Shown here: one piece after another, positions 54,608 through 64,000 of the stretch
How the letters are laid out: every line of letters starts with the position of its first letter
Numbering within the stretch: position 1 is the stretch's first letter
DNA from: Gammaproteobacteria bacterium
GTDB taxonomy: Bacteria > Pseudomonadota > Gammaproteobacteria > Eutrophobiales > Eutrophobiaceae
NCBI GenBank assembly: GCA_965221695.1
Contig: OZ244905.1
Coordinates: forward strand, 1,152,001 to 1,216,000
Direction of reading: 5' to 3'
DNA: 64,000 nucleotides
Made by a program: the position numbers and the translations under genes
The notes under the pieces: model-generated
Told to the model about the DNA's origin: nothing
Seen by the model: the letters and a program-made list of their open reading frames with translations, nothing else
The model's database searches: none

Positions 54608-54900
54608 CACAATTAACACACATACTCTTCATATCACCCCGGAAATTCTCGATATTATTGCAGAAGATCACAAGCGAACGAAAAATCCTCGGCCAGCTAC
54701 CGGAATTATCCTTACAAATTGTGGAACTTGCACGCGAGCGGGGTCAAATCAAAATGGATGACATCATAAAGTCAACCAGCGCCGCCCGAGGGACGATCAA
54801 AGAGCATATTGCTTCATTAGTAAAAAATGGCTATCTAACAAAGCACGGCAAAGGGAAAGGCACATGGTACACAATCTCAGCCTGGTATGTCGTAGAATAA
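54600..54900 (+). pseudogene. Fic-family protein remnant with the Fic core deleted
   Basis: N-terminal MADTINTHTLHITPEILDIIAE joined out of frame near 54666 to a C-terminal wHTH (LPELSLQIVEL...RGTIKEH...HGKGKGTWY); no HPFxxGNGR motif. Confidence 0.7.
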
Positions 54901-54960
54901 CTTGCCGGCCTCCATAATTCACAGGGCACAGCAAGTAACCGGCGATTTACACAGAAATAT

Positions 54961-55356
54961 TTACAGTCCCGCGGCCACCAGGTCATCAATGTCTATACGC
55001 AGCGCGGCCGACAGTTTTTTAAGTGTGTCGATACTCCCGGTTTTCCTGCCGGATTCAATCTGCGCAATGTAGCCCTGTTGAACCCCGGATATGGCTCCAA
55101 GTTCTGTCTGGGTCAGACCGCGATGCTCACGCCAGACACGCAAGCGGGATTCTTCGTCCCGCAGCAGCCTGTGCGCCACCTCTGCAGGAACTAGCTCATC
55201 CTGGCCCGTGGCTAACTCATCCAGCGCATCATCCGCCGCCCGGATATCTTCCGCGTCTTCCGCCAGCGTCAGCAAACGACGGTACATATCAATGGGCACA
55301 ACCGCATGGGTCGGCCGGCCGTCTTTTTCAATGACCTCTACCTGGTTAGTCATCAT
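54961..55356 (-). CDS. XRE-family HTH antitoxin
   Basis: IEKDGRPTHAVVP N-terminus; RVWREHRGLTQTELG...YIAQIESGRK HTH; ATGA overlap with the RelE remnant. Confidence 0.85.
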   Translation of the reverse strand: MMTNQVEVIEKDGRPTHAVVPIDMYRRLLTLAEDAEDIRAADDALDELATGQDELVPAEVAHRLLRDEESRLRVWREHRGLTQTELGAISGVQQGYIAQIESGRKTGSIDTLKKLSAALRIDIDDLVAAGL

Positions 55357-55598
55357 TTATAAATGCCTCCTCTTGGCCCGACTTTCAAAACGAGCAGCAC
55401 AAGTTCATCTTTTTCAATCGCGCATATCGCGCGATAGTCCCCGATCCGCAAGCGCCAGTAAGGCGAACCGGACAGTGGTCCCCAATCCCCGACAACAATG
55501 CCACCATTTGGCACTTGCATAAAGGCAAACGTCTTTGCCCCATTAGCGAACTTGCCCGCCGCCGCCACCGACACGACGCCGCCAATCAACCCCGCCAC
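55353..55598 (-). pseudogene. 5'-truncated RelE/ParE toxin fused to an unrelated fragment
   Basis: C-terminal PLSGSPYWRLRIGDYRAICAIEKDELVLLVLKVGPRGGIYK is RelE-like; the N-terminal half is not. Confidence 0.7.
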
Positions 55599-55716
55599 CG
55601 ATTATCCGGAGTTCAACATTGATACGTCAGTTGAGCTTCGGTTTGATGGAAGCGGTGCGAGCGGTTTTTTGCTAGATGATGAAATGCGACGATTTAAGCT
55701 GAGTATCAAATGGAGT

Positions 55717-56043
55717 TCAAGCTCCGATACTGAGGCGCCCCGGCCGCTCCGAATTCGTCTCGCGGATGACGATATTTACATCGCGCCCGAGTACTGTGAG
55801 AAGACGCAGAAGCCGTTCCATGGAGTACTCCCGAAAGTTGCCCCGTAACAGGCGCGACACATCGGGTTGAGATAGCCCAAGCAGCTTTGCCGCCTCGACC
55901 TGTGTTATGCCGCGCTGGCGAATAATCCTGTCGAGCCGGCTGACGAGCTCGGCTTTGGGCAGGTGGGCGTCAGCATCCGGAAGCCCCAGGTCAGCAAACA
56001 CGTTGCCGTTCTCCCGTTCGGCCTGCCTGGTATCAGTCTTCAT
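55717..56043 (-). CDS. HigA-like XRE antitoxin
   Basis: GNVFADLGLPDA, ITQVEAAKLLGLSQPDVSRLLRG, YSMERL; GGAGAG RBS before ATG 56043. Confidence 0.85.
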   Translation of the reverse strand: MKTDTRQAERENGNVFADLGLPDADAHLPKAELVSRLDRIIRQRGITQVEAAKLLGLSQPDVSRLLRGNFREYSMERLLRLLTVLGRDVNIVIRETNSERPGRLSIGA

Positions 56044-56047
56044 CGGT

Positions 56048-56179
56048 TTACTCTCCGCCATAGTTCTCACGGTAATGTGCGGCAGCCAGAATAGCGACTG
56101 CTCTGTCACTCTCTTGATCAAGAGCTTCGTAATATTGGAATACCTCTCTAATAATTGTATCCAGCTGATCTTCTGTCAT
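56048..56179 (-). pseudogene. 43-aa chimeric remnant (MltR-like start, possible HigB-like tail)
   Basis: MTEDQLDTIIREVFQYYEALDQESDRAVAILAAAHYRENYGGE*; ESDRAVAILAAA resembles the MltR-family motif. Confidence 0.4.
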
Positions 56180-56292
56180 GGTAATTCTTCTGATGTATAG
56201 TTTTCGTTATTGTGTCAATATCAAATTCGTTGTGGAGCATCATCGATCCAGCAGCGTCCTGCAGTTGTTATGCTTGTATCCGCAACGATCAT
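56180..56292 (-). pseudogene. VapC/FitB PIN toxin remnant
   Basis: ATGA-coupled MIVADTSI start, then an out-of-frame QLQDAAGSMMLHNEFDID segment; stops after 23 aa. Confidence 0.7.
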
Positions 56293-56531
56293 GGCCTGTC
56301 TTCGTCAATGGCGCGGTCAATATCTTCGGCTGCGATAACGTCAGGTTGGATCTGTGAGCGTAACAGACGGATGTCTTCGAGCCTGTCTTCCGGATTGATT
56401 CTTACAGTCTGCAAGCTACGCTCGAGGCAAGCGATCACTTCGCTGTTAATACTCCTGTGATGACGTTCGGCAGCAGATTTGAGTTCTTGATAAAGCTCAG
56501 GCGGAATATTTTTTATGGTCAAGGCAGGCAA
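56289..56531 (-). CDS. FitA-like ribbon-helix-helix (Arc family) antitoxin
   Basis: LTIKNIPPELYQELKSAAERHHRSINSEVIACLE. Confidence 0.85.
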   Translation of the reverse strand: MPALTIKNIPPELYQELKSAAERHHRSINSEVIACLERSLQTVRINPEDRLEDIRLLRSQIQPDVIAAEDIDRAIDEDRP

Positions 56532-56680: not shown

Positions 56681-57610
56681 CTATAACTCGATATCCATTC
56701 CGTCGTAAGACACTTCCCAGCCTGCGGCTTCCACTGTCCTGCGTTCCTCACTGTTGGCGAACAGGATCGGGTTGGTGGTGTTGATGTGGATAAATATTTT
56801 TCGCTTGATGCCCAGGTCCTGCAGGGCGGCCAGGGTGCCGTCTGTACCGGAGACGCTGATATGACCCATGCGCTTGCCGGTCTTGATCCCCACTCCGTCG
56901 CGGATCATCTCATCATCCACCCATAACGTGCCGTCAAAGAATATCAGGTCGGCGCCGCTGATGCGCTCGGCGAGTTCCGGCGTTACCCGGGCGCAGGCGG
57001 GCATGTAGTAGAACGACTTGCCGGTATTCCGATCCTTGACGAACAGCGCAATCGTATCCTCATCCACGGAACCGAAATCCTTGCCCTTGCTCTCGTCCTC
57101 CAACCACAGGGCTACCTTGCCCGGGACCGCAAACGGCGTGATTTCAATCTCCATCGCGCTGCCATCCGGCTTCAGCAGTTCCAGGGGTTCGTTCAAGGTC
57201 ATGGGTTCGCGGCTGACGAATTTCGGGTTCAGGACGTTGAATATCGTATTCGCTTGCAGCACACCCAGCACCCGCTGGGTCGCGTAGATCCGTAACGGCT
57301 GTGATTCGCGCAGGTTCAACAGGCCCGCCACATGATCCACATCGGCATTGGTCAGTACCGCGCCCATGATCGGACTGTGGCGCAAGTCTTTTGTCGGATG
57401 CAGTATGTCGTTGTCATTGATCTGCTGGCGCAGGTCCGGGGACGCGTTGAACAGGTACCAGTCGTCTCCATCGGCGCTGATCGCAATGGACGACTGGGTA
57501 CGCTGCGGCGCAGCCGGGTCATCCTGCCTGGCGCGCCTGCTGTTGGGATGATTGCAGTTCCACTGCGGGTAGCCGCCACCGGCGGCTGCGCCTAGTACCC
57601 TGATGCGCAT
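56681..57610 (-). CDS. pqqB: Pyrroloquinoline quinone biosynthesis protein PqqB
   Basis: LGAAAGGGYPQWNC, RTQSSIA, NASPDLRQQI, LTNADVDH, GKRMGH, IHINTTNPIL, YDGM; AGAGGAG RBS. Confidence 0.93.
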   Translation of the reverse strand: MRIRVLGAAAGGGYPQWNCNHPNSRRARQDDPAAPQRTQSSIAISADGDDWYLFNASPDLRQQINDNDILHPTKDLRHSPIMGAVLTNADVDHVAGLLNLRESQPLRIYATQRVLGVLQANTIFNVLNPKFVSREPMTLNEPLELLKPDGSAMEIEITPFAVPGKVALWLEDESKGKDFGSVDEDTIALFVKDRNTGKSFYYMPACARVTPELAERISGADLIFFDGTLWVDDEMIRDGVGIKTGKRMGHISVSGTDGTLAALQDLGIKRKIFIHINTTNPILFANSEERRTVEAAGWEVSYDGMDIEL

Positions 57611-57697
57611 GGTGATGTAAACTCCTCTGTTTGTTGAAACCTGAAAGGGATAAGCTTAAACATATTCGGTGCAATGATATAATACTGGAAGCTGATT

Positions 57698-57922
57698 TCA
57701 ACTCTCTCCTGAATGTATTTCCAAGTCTGTCGGTTTGCTGTTTCTGAGGGCATGATACTCGTTAATAGCTTCCTCAATTTCATCAATTAATTCCTGCATT
57801 TGCGCTCGGCCTGCCTGTTCTATTTCTTTGGCAACACCTTTCTTTGCTGGAGATGAAAGGGATTCTATGAGTATGGCCAGTTGTTTTTTTGCAGCCTGAT
57901 ACTGCTTATCGCAGGTAATCAT
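57698..57922 (-). pseudogene. N-terminal half of an XRE/HigA-like antitoxin, HTH missing
   Basis: MITCDKQYQAAKKQL...ELIDEIEEAINEYHALR; stops before any HTH. Confidence 0.5.
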
Positions 57923-57988
57923 TCTGAATCTCGTGATAACGATTATGCCTTTCGGTTCACCTTCTCGAAAATTGGTAATATGTAAAAG

Positions 57989-58017
57989 TTGACATAGTGA
58001 TCCTCGTATACTACGAT
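57989..58017 (+). promoter_or_regulatory. Sigma70 promoter of the three-gene cassette
   Basis: TTGACA (57989-57994), 17 nt, TACGAT (58012-58017). Confidence 0.65.
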
Positions 58018-58116
58018 TTGCCGTCCAGGTTCTTCCAGGGTAGTTCAATTCGGCGCATAGAAGGAATTATATCTAAAGCCTAAACCATCATAGCTGACTC
58101 TCCGGTTTTTTTTCTA

Positions 58117-58764
58117 ATGCCAAAAAATTACACTAACTCAATTGTTTTCGTCGGAACAGGATTTGAAGTTTCTATGTTCGATGAAAGGGAGCTGGTTGGA
58201 AAGTTTGGCCCAATTAAAAAAGACCAAATCAAAGCCGGACCAGTGGGCCAGTTCAACTATGAGCATGGCTATCATTTTTCAGTTACACCTGATCGCATCG
58301 ATGTTCGTCATTCAGGGCGAGAAGTTTTACCTAATCCACTATTGGAAAACAGCCAATTAATAGCTCGCCAATTGGAACCTATACAGGGAATTGTTTCCGG
58401 TGTTGGCATAAACTGTGATGCAGCATTTCACTCCAGCGAGATCGGTAAGACTGGGATCGAGTTTTGTCAGACTCTGACGAAGAATCAATTGTCTCAGTAC
58501 ATATTTGAAGGGTACTCGAACATAACCACATTATCTGTGGCAACAGCTTTTCAGGGGACAGGTAAACGCGTACAGCAATATAATGTGCGTTTTGAACCTG
58601 ATCAGAATTCAGAGAGGAAAGATCTCAAAGTTGCCTTAAATGCGCACCAAAATGTAACGACTGAAGGTAGGCTAAGTGAGAAACTGGATGGTATCGCGAT
58701 TAAAGAAGTAAGAACCCAGATTGAACGGATCCATCGGCAGATTCTTTCTTCCGGAGATGTATGA
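58117..58764 (+). CDS. Hypothetical protein, TIGR04255-like
   Basis: 215 aa, AT-rich; SIVFVG, FSVTPDRIDV, VSGVGIN, LNAH pattern. Confidence 0.6.
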   Translation: MPKNYTNSIVFVGTGFEVSMFDERELVGKFGPIKKDQIKAGPVGQFNYEHGYHFSVTPDRIDVRHSGREVLPNPLLENSQLIARQLEPIQGIVSGVGINCDAAFHSSEIGKTGIEFCQTLTKNQLSQYIFEGYSNITTLSVATAFQGTGKRVQQYNVRFEPDQNSERKDLKVALNAHQNVTTEGRLSEKLDGIAIKEVRTQIERIHRQILSSGDV

Positions 58765-59444
58765 TGCAAGATGTGGCAACACGGACTTGGAGTCCTGAAG
58801 CAACAATAAATTGTTCCTGGCTACCGGATCAGAGAGTTGATCTCCGTGATCTTAATCCTGATTTCTTTCTGGTCGAAAACGCCAACAAGCTGCAAGCGAT
58901 ATGTCAATTTGTACCGCTTCGCATCTCCATCCCTGAGCAAAAAAGATATAGCGGCTTTCATCTTGTGGTGGCGACATTTTTGGCGGGGTATGCTTCAGCA
59001 GGTTCCCTGGCGCCTTCACCTGGTCAGGACCCATTATTCGTAAGTGGGACAGATTCACATTCTCACTTGTTTATTAGTCTAGAACTAGAAGAGCGCCTGA
59101 AGGAATTATCAACTCGTCTGGAAACATTGCGTAAATTCGCTCAGGAAGATAATTCTTCTGATATTGACTGGCCAAGCGAGCAGGCTTGCAAGGATGCAGA
59201 GTTGTTTATTCGTCTATTACCCCTTTCTGAAATCGTCAGTCCAAATATCTATTTTGCCCATGATGGCGAGATAAATTTTCTGTGGAAGCGGCAGAATGAC
59301 GAACTTCATGTCGATCTGGGATTTTATGGAGATGGAACTTATTCATTCTTTGCAACCAATAATAGTAGGGAGGAGTTAATGGATGACATGGTCAAGATTT
59401 CCGATGGACTGCCAGATAAGCTTATTGATATGCTCAGAGTTTAA
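58761..59444 (+). CDS. Hypothetical protein, putative antitoxin/immunity-like
   Basis: 227 aa; ATGA overlap with the previous gene; acidic C-terminal domain WPSEQACKDAELFIRLLP...PNIYFAHDGEINFLW...LGFYGDG. Confidence 0.6.
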   Translation: MMQDVATRTWSPEATINCSWLPDQRVDLRDLNPDFFLVENANKLQAICQFVPLRISIPEQKRYSGFHLVVATFLAGYASAGSLAPSPGQDPLFVSGTDSHSHLFISLELEERLKELSTRLETLRKFAQEDNSSDIDWPSEQACKDAELFIRLLPLSEIVSPNIYFAHDGEINFLWKRQNDELHVDLGFYGDGTYSFFATNNSREELMDDMVKISDGLPDKLIDMLRV

Positions 59445-59471
59445 CTACTTATACCCTTACCTTTTATTTTA

Positions 59472-59966
59472 ATGGCCCCTTCTATACATCTTGACGAGGG
59501 GGTCAGCCAGAATCCTGCTCAATCGCCAGGCACTTTGGAAAACGATGAATATCTTATCCGTGAAATGTGCGATCCCAATCATTTTGATGAAAATGGCAAC
59601 GTTACGGAAGCAGCAATAAGCTTGAAACACTTACAGTCAAAAGGAGTCTCGGTTCATAGACGGCAATACACACCGATCGATTATGTTAAAACTGCAGTTC
59701 GAAACAGATGTAAGGATCGCGATGGCTGGATAGAAAGTGTCTCATTATTCACGGTTGAAGCAGTCCGAGCTAAAAAAGATGAGGGAAAGCAAGTATTCTG
59801 TGTTATTGATGCCCCCATAGAAGAAAATCCAGGCCATGCCAATATATATTTCTCTCACTTGGTAATTGACAAAATAACACGACCATACGCACGTAAATTA
59901 AGACACCGTCTTCTCCCACTTTTGCAAAATCGTATGTCTGTAGATGCTGCGTATCATGCAACCTAA
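59472..59966 (+). CDS. Hypothetical protein, putative ADP-ribosyltransferase-fold toxin
   Basis: 164 aa; SPG...DEYLIR, GVSVHR, NPGHANI give an R-S-H arrangement. Confidence 0.55.
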   Translation: MAPSIHLDEGVSQNPAQSPGTLENDEYLIREMCDPNHFDENGNVTEAAISLKHLQSKGVSVHRRQYTPIDYVKTAVRNRCKDRDGWIESVSLFTVEAVRAKKDEGKQVFCVIDAPIEENPGHANIYFSHLVIDKITRPYARKLRHRLLPLLQNRMSVDAAYHAT

Positions 59967-60002
59967 ATTCTCGCATTGGCTGGCTGATACCTTAGCTTTA
60001 TA

Positions 60003-60446
60003 CTACGATGAATAACCCGTGGTGTTACGTTCTACCCAGCGTTCTCCGTCGTTGATCGTTTCTTTTTTCCAGAACGGGGCCTTGTGTTTGAGGTCTTCGA
60101 TGATGAAGCGGGTCGCGTCGATGGCGTCGCCCCTGTGAGCGGCCCAGGTTGCGACCAGCACTATGTCTTCGCCTACCTCGATGTTCCCGGTGCGGTGCAG
60201 AACAAGAATATCGTGTACGGCCCACTGTCTGCTTGCCTGTTCGCAGATTTCTTCCAGGTGCTTCTCGGTCATGACCGGATAATGCTCCAGGGTCATTGCG
60301 CCGACTTGCTCGCCTTCGTTGAAGTCCCGCATGGAGCCGATGAAGATACTGGTTGCGCCGGATTTGCCGGGATTGCCGCGGGCAGCGCGGTGTTCTCCTG
60401 CTTCAGCCACGGCATCGAATGGCGCCGGCCTTAATTCCACTCGCAT
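60003..60446 (-). CDS. moaE: Molybdopterin synthase catalytic subunit
   Basis: LEHYP, LHRTG, AHRGDA, LKHKAPFWKKE. Confidence 0.95.
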   Translation of the reverse strand: MRVELRPAPFDAVAEAGEHRAARGNPGKSGATSIFIGSMRDFNEGEQVGAMTLEHYPVMTEKHLEEICEQASRQWAVHDILVLHRTGNIEVGEDIVLVATWAAHRGDAIDATRFIIEDLKHKAPFWKKETINDGERWVERNTTGYSS

Positions 60447-61506: not shown

Positions 61507-63681
61507 TTAAATTCGTGTCGTCAAGCGGCGGTAGATGTCAGATACTTTATAAGGCAGTTTGCGCACATCATCGATCACGGTATAGTTGGGGCTGCCATAC
61601 ATGTAGGGCAGGTACTCCCTTGCCTCGTTGTCGATGGTGATGCAAAAAGGATAGACGCCACCGGCGCGGACTTCTGCGATGGCCTGGCGGGTGTCTTCCA
61701 TGCCGTAGCGCCCCCGGTAATCGCCGTAATCCTCGGGTTTGCCGTCTGACAGCGTAATCAGCAACCTGGACCTGGCCTTTACCGCCTGCAAGTGTTTGCC
61801 CAGGTGACGTATTGCCACGCCCATGCGTGTGTAGGTCCTGGGTTTGATGCCGCTGATCCGGGCGCGCACCAGCGCCGTGCAAGCCTCTTCAAACCGCTTG
61901 ATCCTGTAGATTTCACAACGCTTGTGTGTCCTGCCGGAAAACCCGTAGATGGCATACGGATCGGACAACAGCTCCAAGGCTTCACACAGTAGCGCCAGCG
62001 TCTCTCTTTCCACATGGTTGACCCAGCCGCGGGTGGAGCCGCTCATGTCCACCATGAACATCACCGCCACATCACGCCGGCTCATGTGGAAACAACTGTA
62101 CAGTTTCTCGCTCATCTCCAGGCCCTGCTGATGGTCAACACAGGCTTCCACCAGGGCGTCGAAATCGATCTCATCGCCAAAGCTCTGGCGCTTGCGCATC
62201 TCATACGCCTCGGCCATTGCCTCGAACGAACGGCGTACCGATCCCAGGTGAACACGGTATTTTTCCACTGTTTTGGCGAAAAAATCATCATAGACGGGTG
62301 TGACATCGATTTCCGTCAGCGCGCAGAAATGGTTGCGGTAGCGCTGCCTGGTGTAATCCCATTCCGGGTAATACAGCGGATTTTGCAGGTCGTAACCTGC
62401 CGCGGTATCGGTCTGGCTGACCTCACCCGAACCGGTTTCCGCATCCGGGTAACCGGAATAACCACCACTGACCTCCAGGTAGTCATCGGGCACATGACCC
62501 ATATCCTGAATGATCGACACCAGCAACTGTTTTACCTCATCATCGGCATCAACCTCCTGTTTCCCGAAAATCAGCGACAGCGCACCGATCCCCTGGTGTG
62601 CGCCGGTAAAGACAGCGTCAGGGTCGGCCCCGGTTACCGTCCAGGACGTATTGTCCAACGCGATGGTATCGGTACTTGCCGGGTTCGGCTGTTCCTGGCG
62701 CAGACGCGCCAGCGACTGTTGCAATTTGTGCTTCTGCTGCCGCACCCGTTCCCGCAGTATTTTCTCGACTGTTTCCGGAAAGTAGTCACCATGATAGGCC
62801 TTGCGTGCCGGAACCGGTCTCTCCAGGTTAGCGCTTATCCTGTCCATGCTGTCCATGGCTTTTGCGCCGGCCTGCAGCAGCAGGCGGTTGTCTTGATTCC
62901 AGCCCAGGTAACGCGCCCTGCTGTCTTCATCCTGGTTATCAAGCCGTTGCATCTCCCGGTACAAGCCCGGAAAATCCAGGGCCAGGCGCGCCTCCAGGCG
63001 CAGGCTCTCCAGAGTTGCGAAAACAGGCAGGGCAGCAGGCAGGTCGGGTAACTGCAACAGGCGTTCAAGCACATCCTGACGCCAGCTTCCGTAATAATTC
63101 TGTGCCCAGTGATAAACGGCGATCAGCTTGTACAGGGTTTCATTGTCACTGCGCGTGTCGAAGACATGCAAAAAAGTGGGCAGGTAAATCGACTCCGTGT
63201 CGGTAAATACGCGTTCTCCGCCAGTGATGCGCAGCGCACGGCCGCCGAGGCCGGTTAAATAGGACTCCAGAAAGGGTTCAAGTTCCTCCAGGCCCACGCC
63301 GGATCGCCGGGCGCGGTATTCTTCAACAAACGCATCCAGGTTTGTAATCACCTCAATCGCAGCGCCCAGGCCACGTTTGTCATAACCGTCCAGGATGGCC
63401 GTCATCCAGGCGTCAACGCCCTCTATTTCCAGCAGGGTTAACGCCCGGTCAAGCCGGCCAGAAAAATGCGCCTGCAGGTCGGGATGATCCCGCTGCAGAA
63501 CCTGTAACCAATGATCGACGCGCCGGCGCGCCACGGGGTCCAGCGCCGGCAGCGACTGGGCAAGGTCTTCCCCGCCAACTGTCGGAGACAAACCGCCTCC
63601 GACCGCGCGCCGCAAATGCGCGGGGATATGTACTCTGCCGGCGGCCTGTTCCGCCGCAGGGGGTGGAGCCGAACCGTCCAT
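61507..63681 (-). CDS. CbbO/NorD-like von Willebrand factor A domain protein
   Basis: FTDTESIYLP, YPEWDY, MIDAS DMSGST, YTRMGVAIRH, LSDGKPED. Confidence 0.88.
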   Translation of the reverse strand: MDGSAPPPAAEQAAGRVHIPAHLRRAVGGGLSPTVGGEDLAQSLPALDPVARRRVDHWLQVLQRDHPDLQAHFSGRLDRALTLLEIEGVDAWMTAILDGYDKRGLGAAIEVITNLDAFVEEYRARRSGVGLEELEPFLESYLTGLGGRALRITGGERVFTDTESIYLPTFLHVFDTRSDNETLYKLIAVYHWAQNYYGSWRQDVLERLLQLPDLPAALPVFATLESLRLEARLALDFPGLYREMQRLDNQDEDSRARYLGWNQDNRLLLQAGAKAMDSMDRISANLERPVPARKAYHGDYFPETVEKILRERVRQQKHKLQQSLARLRQEQPNPASTDTIALDNTSWTVTGADPDAVFTGAHQGIGALSLIFGKQEVDADDEVKQLLVSIIQDMGHVPDDYLEVSGGYSGYPDAETGSGEVSQTDTAAGYDLQNPLYYPEWDYTRQRYRNHFCALTEIDVTPVYDDFFAKTVEKYRVHLGSVRRSFEAMAEAYEMRKRQSFGDEIDFDALVEACVDHQQGLEMSEKLYSCFHMSRRDVAVMFMVDMSGSTRGWVNHVERETLALLCEALELLSDPYAIYGFSGRTHKRCEIYRIKRFEEACTALVRARISGIKPRTYTRMGVAIRHLGKHLQAVKARSRLLITLSDGKPEDYGDYRGRYGMEDTRQAIAEVRAGGVYPFCITIDNEAREYLPYMYGSPNYTVIDDVRKLPYKVSDIYRRLTTRI

Positions 63682-63712: not shown

Positions 63713-64000
63713 TTACAACACCGACGCGCAAAGTTCCCTGACCGTTTTCAGCATTTCTTCATCATCGGTGAGCGCCTGGTTCACCGCTGTCTCACAGGCC
63801 TGCCGGGGGACAATGCCATGCCGGATCAACTTGGCTGCATTCACGATCAACCGGGTACTCGCGCCTTCTATCAGCCCGCTGTTTTTAAGGTTCCGGGTCA
63901 TATCGGCAAACCTGACCAGCATTGTGGCTGTTGCCGCGTCGACGCCTGTTTCTTTCACCAGGATCTCCGTTTCCCGGTCGGGCTGGGGGTAAGAAAAATC
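63713..64000 (-). CDS. CbbQ/NirQ/NorQ AAA+ ATPase, C-terminal part (runs off the window)
   Basis: DFSYP...ETEIL...TRNLK...LIEGASTRLIV...ALTDD. Confidence 0.85.
   Translation of the reverse strand, partial: DFSYPQPDRETEILVKETGVDAATATMLVRFADMTRNLKNSGLIEGASTRLIVNAAKLIRHGIVPRQACETAVNQALTDDEEMLKTVRELCASVL

Follow-up and report, generated by a model that had tools for sequence, protein, structure and literature searches.

The question raised here is what is encoded by three co-oriented open reading frames (ORFs) in a 64,000-nt stretch of a gammaproteobacterial genome (contig OZ244905.1, positions 1,152,001 to 1,216,000; this whole stretch is referred to as the window and coordinates are counted from its first letter). 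All three lie on the forward strand and are intact, consisting of ORF1 (58117–58764, 215 amino acids (aa)), ORF2 (58761–59444, 227 aa) and ORF3 (59472–59966, 164 aa), with an ATGA overlap joining ORF1 to ORF2 and a 27-bp gap separating ORF2 from ORF3. This layout, confirmed by the ORF coordinates, had been described in a first-pass annotation made from the sequence letters, which proposed an undescribed three-component toxin or defence system. The comparisons performed in this work identify the cassette as a three-gene, ORF1-headed variant of an uncharacterised supergroup linked to the phage defence candidate PDC-M32 and to the protein family TIGR04255. On balance, it is probably a mobile toxin- or defence-type module of this large supergroup, in which a pair of genes, ORF2 and ORF3 in the window, forms a constant core.

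The ORF3 family and its predicted partner

ORF3 contains the motifs EYLIR (residues 26–30), GVSVHR (58–63) and NPGHANI (119–125), which had been read as the R...S-V...H layout of small ADP-ribosyltransferase (ART) fold toxins. The motifs are real and are conserved across a large family. A word-indexed search returned eight close relatives, and a profile search of a 1.84-billion-protein library returned 667 representative clusters at E ≤ 0.001 (174 at E ≤ 1e-10), mostly stand-alone proteins of 140–200 aa. Within an alignment of 109 sequences Ser60 and His122 are invariant, and Glu26, Arg30, Pro35, Ala48, Gly58, Arg63, Arg99, Ala123 and Leu147 are at least 90% conserved. The best conserved residues are Arg30, Ser60 and His122, encoded at 59559–59561, 59649–59651 and 59835–59837 respectively. 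No match to ORF3 was present among the Pfam, NCBIfam, PADLOC or PHROG models, the 109 relatives gave no consistent Pfam family, and a sequence profile search of the PDB with the ORF3 family gave chance-level rows only.

The ART fold previously suggested for ORF3 is supported by an AlphaFold 2 model with a predicted local distance difference test (pLDDT) score of 94.5, for which the top fold matches were proteins of the ART superfamily, with low Z scores of at most 6.5. The split β-sheet core of that superfamily is present in the model. Foldseek searches of the PDB (both ORF3 models) and of BFVD gave no match at E ≤ 0.001, and in the ESM Atlas only unnamed clusters were found for ORF3 and for the C-terminal domain of ORF2. 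Within the model Arg30 is located on strand 1, Ser60 on strand 2 and His122 where a later core strand begins; from the ART topology we take these to be the sites at which the R, S-T-S and catalytic Glu motifs lie, a placement that rests on strand order. The third position is occupied by an invariant His122 and not by the Glu of the R-S-E or H-Y-E triads. As modelled, ORF3 has an ART-like fold with a conserved R...S...H core. When compared to the RNA 2'-phosphotransferase Tpt1/KptA, ORF3 matches only the C-terminal NAD+-binding lobe, the RNA-binding lobe being absent. Identity to Tpt1/KptA and to the type VI toxin Tse2 is 6–13%, and no sequence-level relation to either was found in the PDB profile search. 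The title, length and matched range of PDB entry 9ld3 led us to infer that it is a Tpt1/KptA-type enzyme.

ORF2 carries SPNIYFAHDGEINFLW and consists of a variable N-terminal region (residues 1–104, 58761–59072), poorly conserved in the alignment of relatives, coupled to a compact C-terminal domain (residues ~105–227, 59073–59444). Most of the 38 relatives recovered share only the C-terminal ~110 residues. The consensus of this domain, W-D-G...A-P...A...F...L-P...P-x-I...DGEINFLW...DLGFYGDGTYSYYA, has many near-invariant positions, and in 37 aligned relatives D-G-E-x-N-F-L-W is invariant or nearly so; it is referred to here as the WDG domain. The N-terminal half varies in length and sequence, with the other two complete triads, described below, aligning by tblastn only from residue 67–70 onward. 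ORF2 had no Pfam, NCBIfam or PHROG match, no recognisable DNA-binding domain in Pfam or NCBIfam, and only chance-level rows in the PDB sequence profile search. The possibility that a longer N-terminal extension accompanies the presence of a first gene was considered and rejected, given that five TIGR04255-headed cassettes encode WDG proteins of 163–169 aa.

In 12 of the 13 loci scanned with local hidden Markov models (HMMs), the gene immediately upstream of the ORF3-family member encodes a WDG domain (the window, L006, L021, L007, L030, L031, L032, L033, L034, L091, L092 and L093); L005 alone departs from this. Prediction of a complex between ORF3 and residues 105–226 of ORF2 gave scores of 0.90, 0.88 and 0.88, compared to 0.00 for the best of three controls, with a partner pLDDT of at least 91 and the runs agreeing on at least 97% of contacts. 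Of 80 solved complexes 58 attain the mark used with this predictor, as do 2 of 110 mismatched pairs; because custom alignments were supplied here, these counts apply only roughly. The predicted interface is formed by the conserved DGEINFLW stretch of ORF2 and by residues 34–53, 79–83 and 136–145 of ORF3, which include the conserved Ala48 and the Arg141/Arg144 regions. ORF2 is therefore predicted to be a dedicated partner of ORF3 through its compact C-terminal domain, as had been proposed earlier. The two are neighbouring small genes of one orientation, and their products are predicted to bind each other, in the manner of a type II toxin–antitoxin (TA) pair. The model supports binding and is silent on whether that binding inhibits ORF3.

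The WDG domain was also observed outside this pairing. In three proteins of 134–135 aa (P0057, P0058 and P0060) its last ~70 residues are fused to a TacA1-like antitoxin part corresponding to the C-terminal toxin-binding region (PF08681, E about 1e-12), and the fusion may be a recombination chimera. A WDG-domain-only gene of 129 aa is found on an IMG/VR contig (L094, 3962–4351), where the context is phage-like and no ART-like gene follows; a later ORF on that contig (5440–5832) appears TIR-like by eye.

Kinship with PDC-M32 and the variable first gene

PDC-M32 is a two-gene (A and B) PADLOC system, listed by Payne et al. as one of 145 untested phage defence candidates that were predicted by their embedding in BREX, DISARM or type I restriction-modification (RM) systems (10.1101/2024.01.29.577857). 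In the literature searched, the name came up in a single paper, and there solely for a hypothetical hit in prophages of Sinorhizobium (PMC12429752). Genuine PDC-M32 loci were present in 10 of the 401 genomes of the phylum sample, and in four loci examined the pair is located between hsdM and hsdS. PDC-M32A is 316–438 aa in five long-A loci, where it ends in a WDG domain, and 180 aa in a short variant (L019). PDC-M32B, equivalent to phrog_31579, is ~123–126 aa and contains LLRQ...LSVY...PEHxVIDF.

Alignment of PDC-M32B-type proteins with the ORF3 family by hhalign gave a probability of 97.6% (E 2.8e-12) over 123 columns, with the R, S and H residues of the two families aligned, and three of the 109 ORF3 relatives directly match the PDC-M32B model. 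The C-terminus of PDC-M32A (~95 positions) is matched by 18 of 37 ORF2 relatives with the PADLOC model and aligns with the ORF2 family with an hhalign probability of 75.7% (E 2.4e-5). The order of the genes, binder then small enzyme, is the same as that of ORF2 and ORF3. For the window proteins themselves the PADLOC signal is faint: ORF2 matches the PDC-M32A models PDLC04574-6 over the last ~95 positions only (~257–353 of 375) at E 0.0016–0.002 (0.0165 genome-wide), and ORF3 gave no match to the PDC-M32B model PDLC04579 at E ≤ 1, nor did any protein of its own genome at E ≤ 10. The PADLOC comparison that the first-pass annotation had called for therefore returned a weak ORF2 match and nothing for ORF1 or ORF3. 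Several differences are apparent. ORF3, at 164 aa, has an extra N-terminal 'SPG' segment, ORF2 is missing the ~250-aa N-terminal domain of PDC-M32A, and the cassette in the window has a separate first gene and lies between moaE and a PqqB-like gene, whereas PDC-M32 consists of two genes and is typically RM-embedded. By model thresholds the cassette belongs to no named system, and in this respect the description 'undescribed' stands, although profile comparison indicates that the ORF2–ORF3 pair is a distant homologue of the already catalogued PDC-M32.

ORF1 belongs to a rare family of 14 homologues with 47–68% identity and 32 invariant columns, and the conserved N-terminus of the family supports the 215-aa start. 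A gene of this family is located upstream of the ORF2 and ORF3 relatives in two further loci (L006 and L021). ORF1 had been annotated as a TIGR04255-like protein acting as a SecB-like chaperone or sensor. Neither assignment was borne out by sequence comparison, as ORF1 gave no match to SecB, TIGR04255 or any other Pfam or NCBIfam model at E ≤ 1, nor to PADLOC or PHROG models. The 14 family members likewise had no TIGR04255 match in NCBIfam at E ≤ 1 (the TIGR04255 cut-off being 30 bits), and comparison of the family with 27 TIGR04255 proteins gave an hhalign probability of 0.2%. A local HMM built from those 27 proteins gave ORF1 a score of −1.0 bits. A PDB sequence profile search gave chance-level rows only. 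TIGR04255 proteins are also larger, at ~250–300 aa, and what ORF1 appears to share with them is gene position. Kinship of ORF1 to the N-terminal domain of PDC-M32A or to the 328-aa first gene of L007, and of TIGR04255 to PDC-M32A, was also considered and no relation was found in any of these comparisons.

The first-gene slot is occupied by TIGR04255 in four loci, by the ORF1 family in three, by an ATPase or FN3-like protein in two and by no gene in two. The loci headed by a TIGR04255 gene are those of G125, G106 and two IMG/VR contigs; the G125 protein scores 61.6 bits against a cut-off of 30, and its gene overlaps the ORF2-like gene by 4 bp. The first gene of L034 encodes an AAA-type ATPase, and that of G005 a 328-aa protein with an FN3-like end, the distant ORF2/ORF3-like pair in G005 being located between hsdS and hsdR. 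The pairs in L031 and L033 have no first gene and lie between housekeeping genes. Interchangeable first genes of this kind are typical of modular conflict systems. The TIGR04255-headed cassettes have an architecture identical to that in the window, with a first gene followed by a WDG-domain gene and a small R-S-H ART-like gene, despite ORF1 not being detectably TIGR04255.

Approached from the side of TIGR04255, a WDG-domain gene and a small R-S-H protein are encoded directly downstream in 7 of 30 loci. Across the TIGR04255-headed cassettes identified from both sides, the third gene belongs to the ORF3 family in L030/L064, L032/L065, L092 and L093, and is PDC-M32B-like in L036, L045, L050, L053 and L054. 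The remaining loci of this set (L036–L065, n = 30) show at least four other downstream arrangements, and TIGR04255 would seem to be a frequent opening component in three-gene cassettes of modular build. The other arrangements observed consist of proteins of ~110–125 and ~190–208 aa, of ~220–243 and ~160–171 aa, of ~208–219 and ~271 aa, or of a single protein of ~214–233 aa. The genome of the window itself contains, outside the window (G000:C1:2611824-2612564, L043), a genuine TIGR04255 gene scoring 127.8 bits, followed by ORFs of 243 and 171 aa in a cassette of a different type from ORF1–ORF2–ORF3. The family is present in 32 of the 401 genomes of the phylum sample, and a literature search for the term 'TIGR04255' found no mention.

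The complete ORF1–ORF2–ORF3 triad was found in the same order in two other genomes, the congener G004 (Gammaproteobacteria metagenome-assembled genome (MAG) OZ220714) and a Candidatus Binatia MAG (OZ243979), the latter from a different phylum, and the co-occurrence of the three genes is thereby established beyond the window. Protein identities are 48–59%, the ORFs are intact, and both triads (L006 and L021) lie beside transposase genes. Any relative of ORF3 is present in 4 of 41 genomes of the genus sample and 7 of 401 of the phylum sample. Searches of genome contigs with ORF3 alone, and of metagenome contigs with ORF3 and ORF1 alignments, found nothing.

Proposed function and competing explanations

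From the computed insertion, conservation, ART-like fold, gene linkage, predicted ORF2–ORF3 complex and distant PDC-M32 homology, we infer toxicity, NAD+ chemistry, neutralisation, a role for ORF1 and a defence function along the following lines. The core would consist of the WDG/DGEINFLW-domain protein ORF2 and the small R-S-H ART-fold protein ORF3, with a variable component ahead of the pair that may be ORF1, TIGR04255, an ATPase, no gene at all, or, in PDC-M32A, a fused N-terminal domain. ORF3, the presumed effector or toxin, would use NAD+ either to ADP-ribosylate a macromolecule or by cleaving it, leading to growth arrest. ORF2, as either neutraliser or adaptor, would use its C-terminal domain to hold ORF3. 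In common with TIGR04255 proteins in other cassettes, ORF1 may sense the trigger or control release, and would probably do so via the N-terminal half of ORF2, which is variable, so as to time the release of ORF3, for example upon phage infection or element loss.

If this reading of a mobile toxin- or defence-type module is correct, the PDC-M32 effector would gain its first fold and a catalytic triad that can be put to the test, the TIGR04255 family would gain its first functional context, and the known ART-like enzymes would be joined by a family that, unusually, has His where the catalytic Glu would be. The supergroup occurs widely and has a small core of two proteins of ~120 and ~160 residues, the copy in the window being one rare sub-variant. 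A more far-reaching version can be put forward only tentatively. ORF3 could represent a large unrecognised clade of R-S-H ART-fold enzymes with a chemistry independent of Glu, and be the common effector of a modular abortive-infection family in which a WDG adaptor is combined with interchangeable sensors; these would be the ORF1 family, TIGR04255, ATPases and the N-terminal domain of PDC-M32A. The chemistry might resemble that of Tpt1, with the phosphate ends of nucleic acids modified in an NAD+-dependent manner, or be a new form of NAD+ cleavage.

A number of observations weigh against a toxin- or defence-type module. The fold-match scores for ORF3 are low, His stands where R-S-E transferases have their catalytic Glu, and ORF1 has no family or fold match that could be assigned in the searches described. 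The predicted interface leaves Arg30, Ser60 and His122 uncovered, such that simple plugging of the active site is not indicated. An orphan ORF3 homologue in G018 (L005, 6404–6898), with 61% identity and the R, S and H residues intact, directly follows a truncated DNA methyltransferase-like ORF and has no relative of ORF1 or ORF2 nearby, which is awkward for a constitutively lethal toxin. No relative of ORF3 or of the ORF2 C-terminal domain was found by tblastn in the phage and plasmid collections. The cassette in the window lies between housekeeping genes and not in a defence island, and PDC-M32 is itself an untested candidate (10.1101/2024.01.29.577857).

Among the alternatives, a plain addiction (TA) module, serving to stabilise mobile DNA and playing no part against phages, is given a minor but appreciable chance. 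ORF3 would be the toxin, ORF2 the antitoxin and ORF1 an accessory protein, either dispensable or regulatory. In keeping with such a module, two-gene pairs of WDG and ART-like genes stand alone among housekeeping genes (L031 and L033), TA remnants lie near the cassette in the window, transposases adjoin the L006 and L021 cassettes, and ORF2 is predicted to bind ORF3. Against it, ORF2 has no recognisable DNA-binding domain, a minimal TA pair has no use for the variable and often large first gene, and relatives of the pair sit inside type I RM operons. For the known TA pairs with ART-fold toxins, DarT-DarG, ParT-ParS and RES-Xre/MbcT-MbcA, no Pfam or NCBIfam match was found to DUF4433/DarT, RES, macrodomain or DUF2384/Xre partners. 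The WDG partner is unrelated to the partners in those pairs by sequence, and the third motif residue of ORF3 is His.

CmdTAC (also named PD-T4-9) is a toxin–antitoxin–chaperone (TAC) anti-phage system with an ADP-ribosyltransferase toxin (PMC9519451; 10.1101/2024.02.24.581662). The first-pass annotation had proposed an analogous system in reversed gene order, in which a SecB-like ORF1 stabilises ORF2 via an N-terminal addiction element. This is now considered improbable. The two systems do resemble one another in having three co-transcribed genes, the third in the window with an ART-like fold, which leaves a TA-like logic plausible, and the N-terminal half of ORF2 varies, being unlike in cassettes that have other first genes. 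None of the three ORFs matches the PADLOC PD-T4-9/CmdTAC models, however, and no SecB-like protein is present among them at E ≤ 1 in Pfam or NCBIfam; ORF1 has no SecB, TIGR04255 or other family match at this threshold. In TAC systems the chaperone resembles SecB and the addiction element (ChAD) extends the antitoxin at its C-terminus (PMC9519451), whereas the variable extension of ORF2 is N-terminal and its C-terminus is a conserved globular domain. The order of the genes also differs. The assignment of the ORF2 N-terminal region as an addiction element is thus disfavoured, and the short WDG proteins of the five TIGR04255-headed cassettes (163–169 aa) have little N-terminal extension.

Equally doubtful is that ORF3 is not toxic, and is instead a benign enzyme that handles NAD+ or ADP-ribose, a Tpt1/KptA-like enzyme modifying nucleic-acid ends or a catalytically dead ART fold, for which ORF2 would serve as a scaffold. 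The invariance of Ser60 and His122 in 109 sequences argues for catalysis, and the sporadic, horizontally transferred distribution (seen in 4 of the 41 relatives and in 7 of the 401 phylum genomes), the tight linkage of the ORF3 gene to a dedicated, predicted binding partner and the embedding of relatives in RM loci also speak against this reading. A benign role would nonetheless fit the Tpt1/KptA-type proteins included among the best fold matches of ORF3, its missing catalytic Glu, and the persistence of the orphan homologue without ORF2 in G018.

The insertion and its surroundings

The cassette lies within a 2,372-bp insertion (57635–60006; 42.1% G+C), as determined by blastn and tblastn comparison with six congeners, all six of which have the PqqB-like gene immediately after moaE. 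In the closest of these (G008) the flanks are ~98% identical and 24 bp are present in place of 57635–60006. G+C content is 0.39–0.47 across 57600–60000 and 0.53–0.62 in the flanks, in agreement with the ~42% estimated previously. The insertion contains the three ORFs and a divergent 74-aa ORF (57698–57922, reverse strand), and no target-site duplication was found at its edges. The cassette is a recently, horizontally acquired insertion. It had been suggested that the cassette was kept intact while nearby toxins were destroyed; the simplest reason for its intactness is that it arrived recently, the block being absent from a 98%-identical congener. That the block is functionless cargo, with genes intact only through recent insertion, is highly improbable: its absence from that congener and a promoter match no better than chance would fit, but all three proteins are intact at 48–59% identity in two other genomes, one of another phylum, and the ORF1, ORF2 and ORF3 families have strongly conserved motifs.

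A σ70-like promoter match, TTGACA-17-TACGAT (57989–58017, forward strand), is located 100 bp upstream of ORF1 and agrees with 10 of 12 consensus positions. The site is present as previously described, yet five promoter-like sites were found in the region with 5.0 expected from shuffled sequence, and because such sites are no commoner than in shuffles it carries no weight of its own. Its −10 element is overlapped by the left copy of an exact 11-bp direct repeat, TATACTACGAT, that flanks the three ORFs (58007–58017 and 59999–60009). This repeat was considered as an att site and rejected: chance alone would yield ~0.8 exact 11-mers in 2.65 kb, so its length is within chance, two further exact 11-mers are present, and the boundary defined by G008 lies elsewhere. 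The 74-aa ORF had no Pfam, NCBIfam or PADLOC match and a single weak PHROG match (E 0.0071), and tblastn found no relative of it in the triad and relative loci L005–L007 and L021; it may be a remnant.

The right neighbour of the insertion is moaE (60003–60446) and the left neighbour is a gene for a PqqB-like metallo-β-lactamase (56681–57610). The cassette had been placed between moaE and a field of decayed TA genes, which is correct for moaE; the TA remnants are farther left, at 54.9–56.5 kb, beyond the PqqB-like gene. A second insertion relative to G008 is found there (54666–56215; 1,550 bp in the window and 280 bp in G008), and contains an HTH_3/Phd-like antitoxin (54961–55356), an HTH_37 protein (55717–56121) and a ParE fragment (55353–55598) that matches only positions 54–87 of the 89 in the model, corresponding to the C-terminal third. 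At 56289–56531 is a FitA-like ribbon-helix-helix antitoxin gene without a PIN toxin partner; conservation of this antitoxin gene amounts to 100% in G008 and 78% in G010. This conservation identifies it as an old orphan and not part of the new insertions. On the opposite side of the cassette, and unrelated to it, a gene for a large VWA-domain protein (61507–63681) lies beside a partial ORF (63713–64000) that runs to the end of the window.

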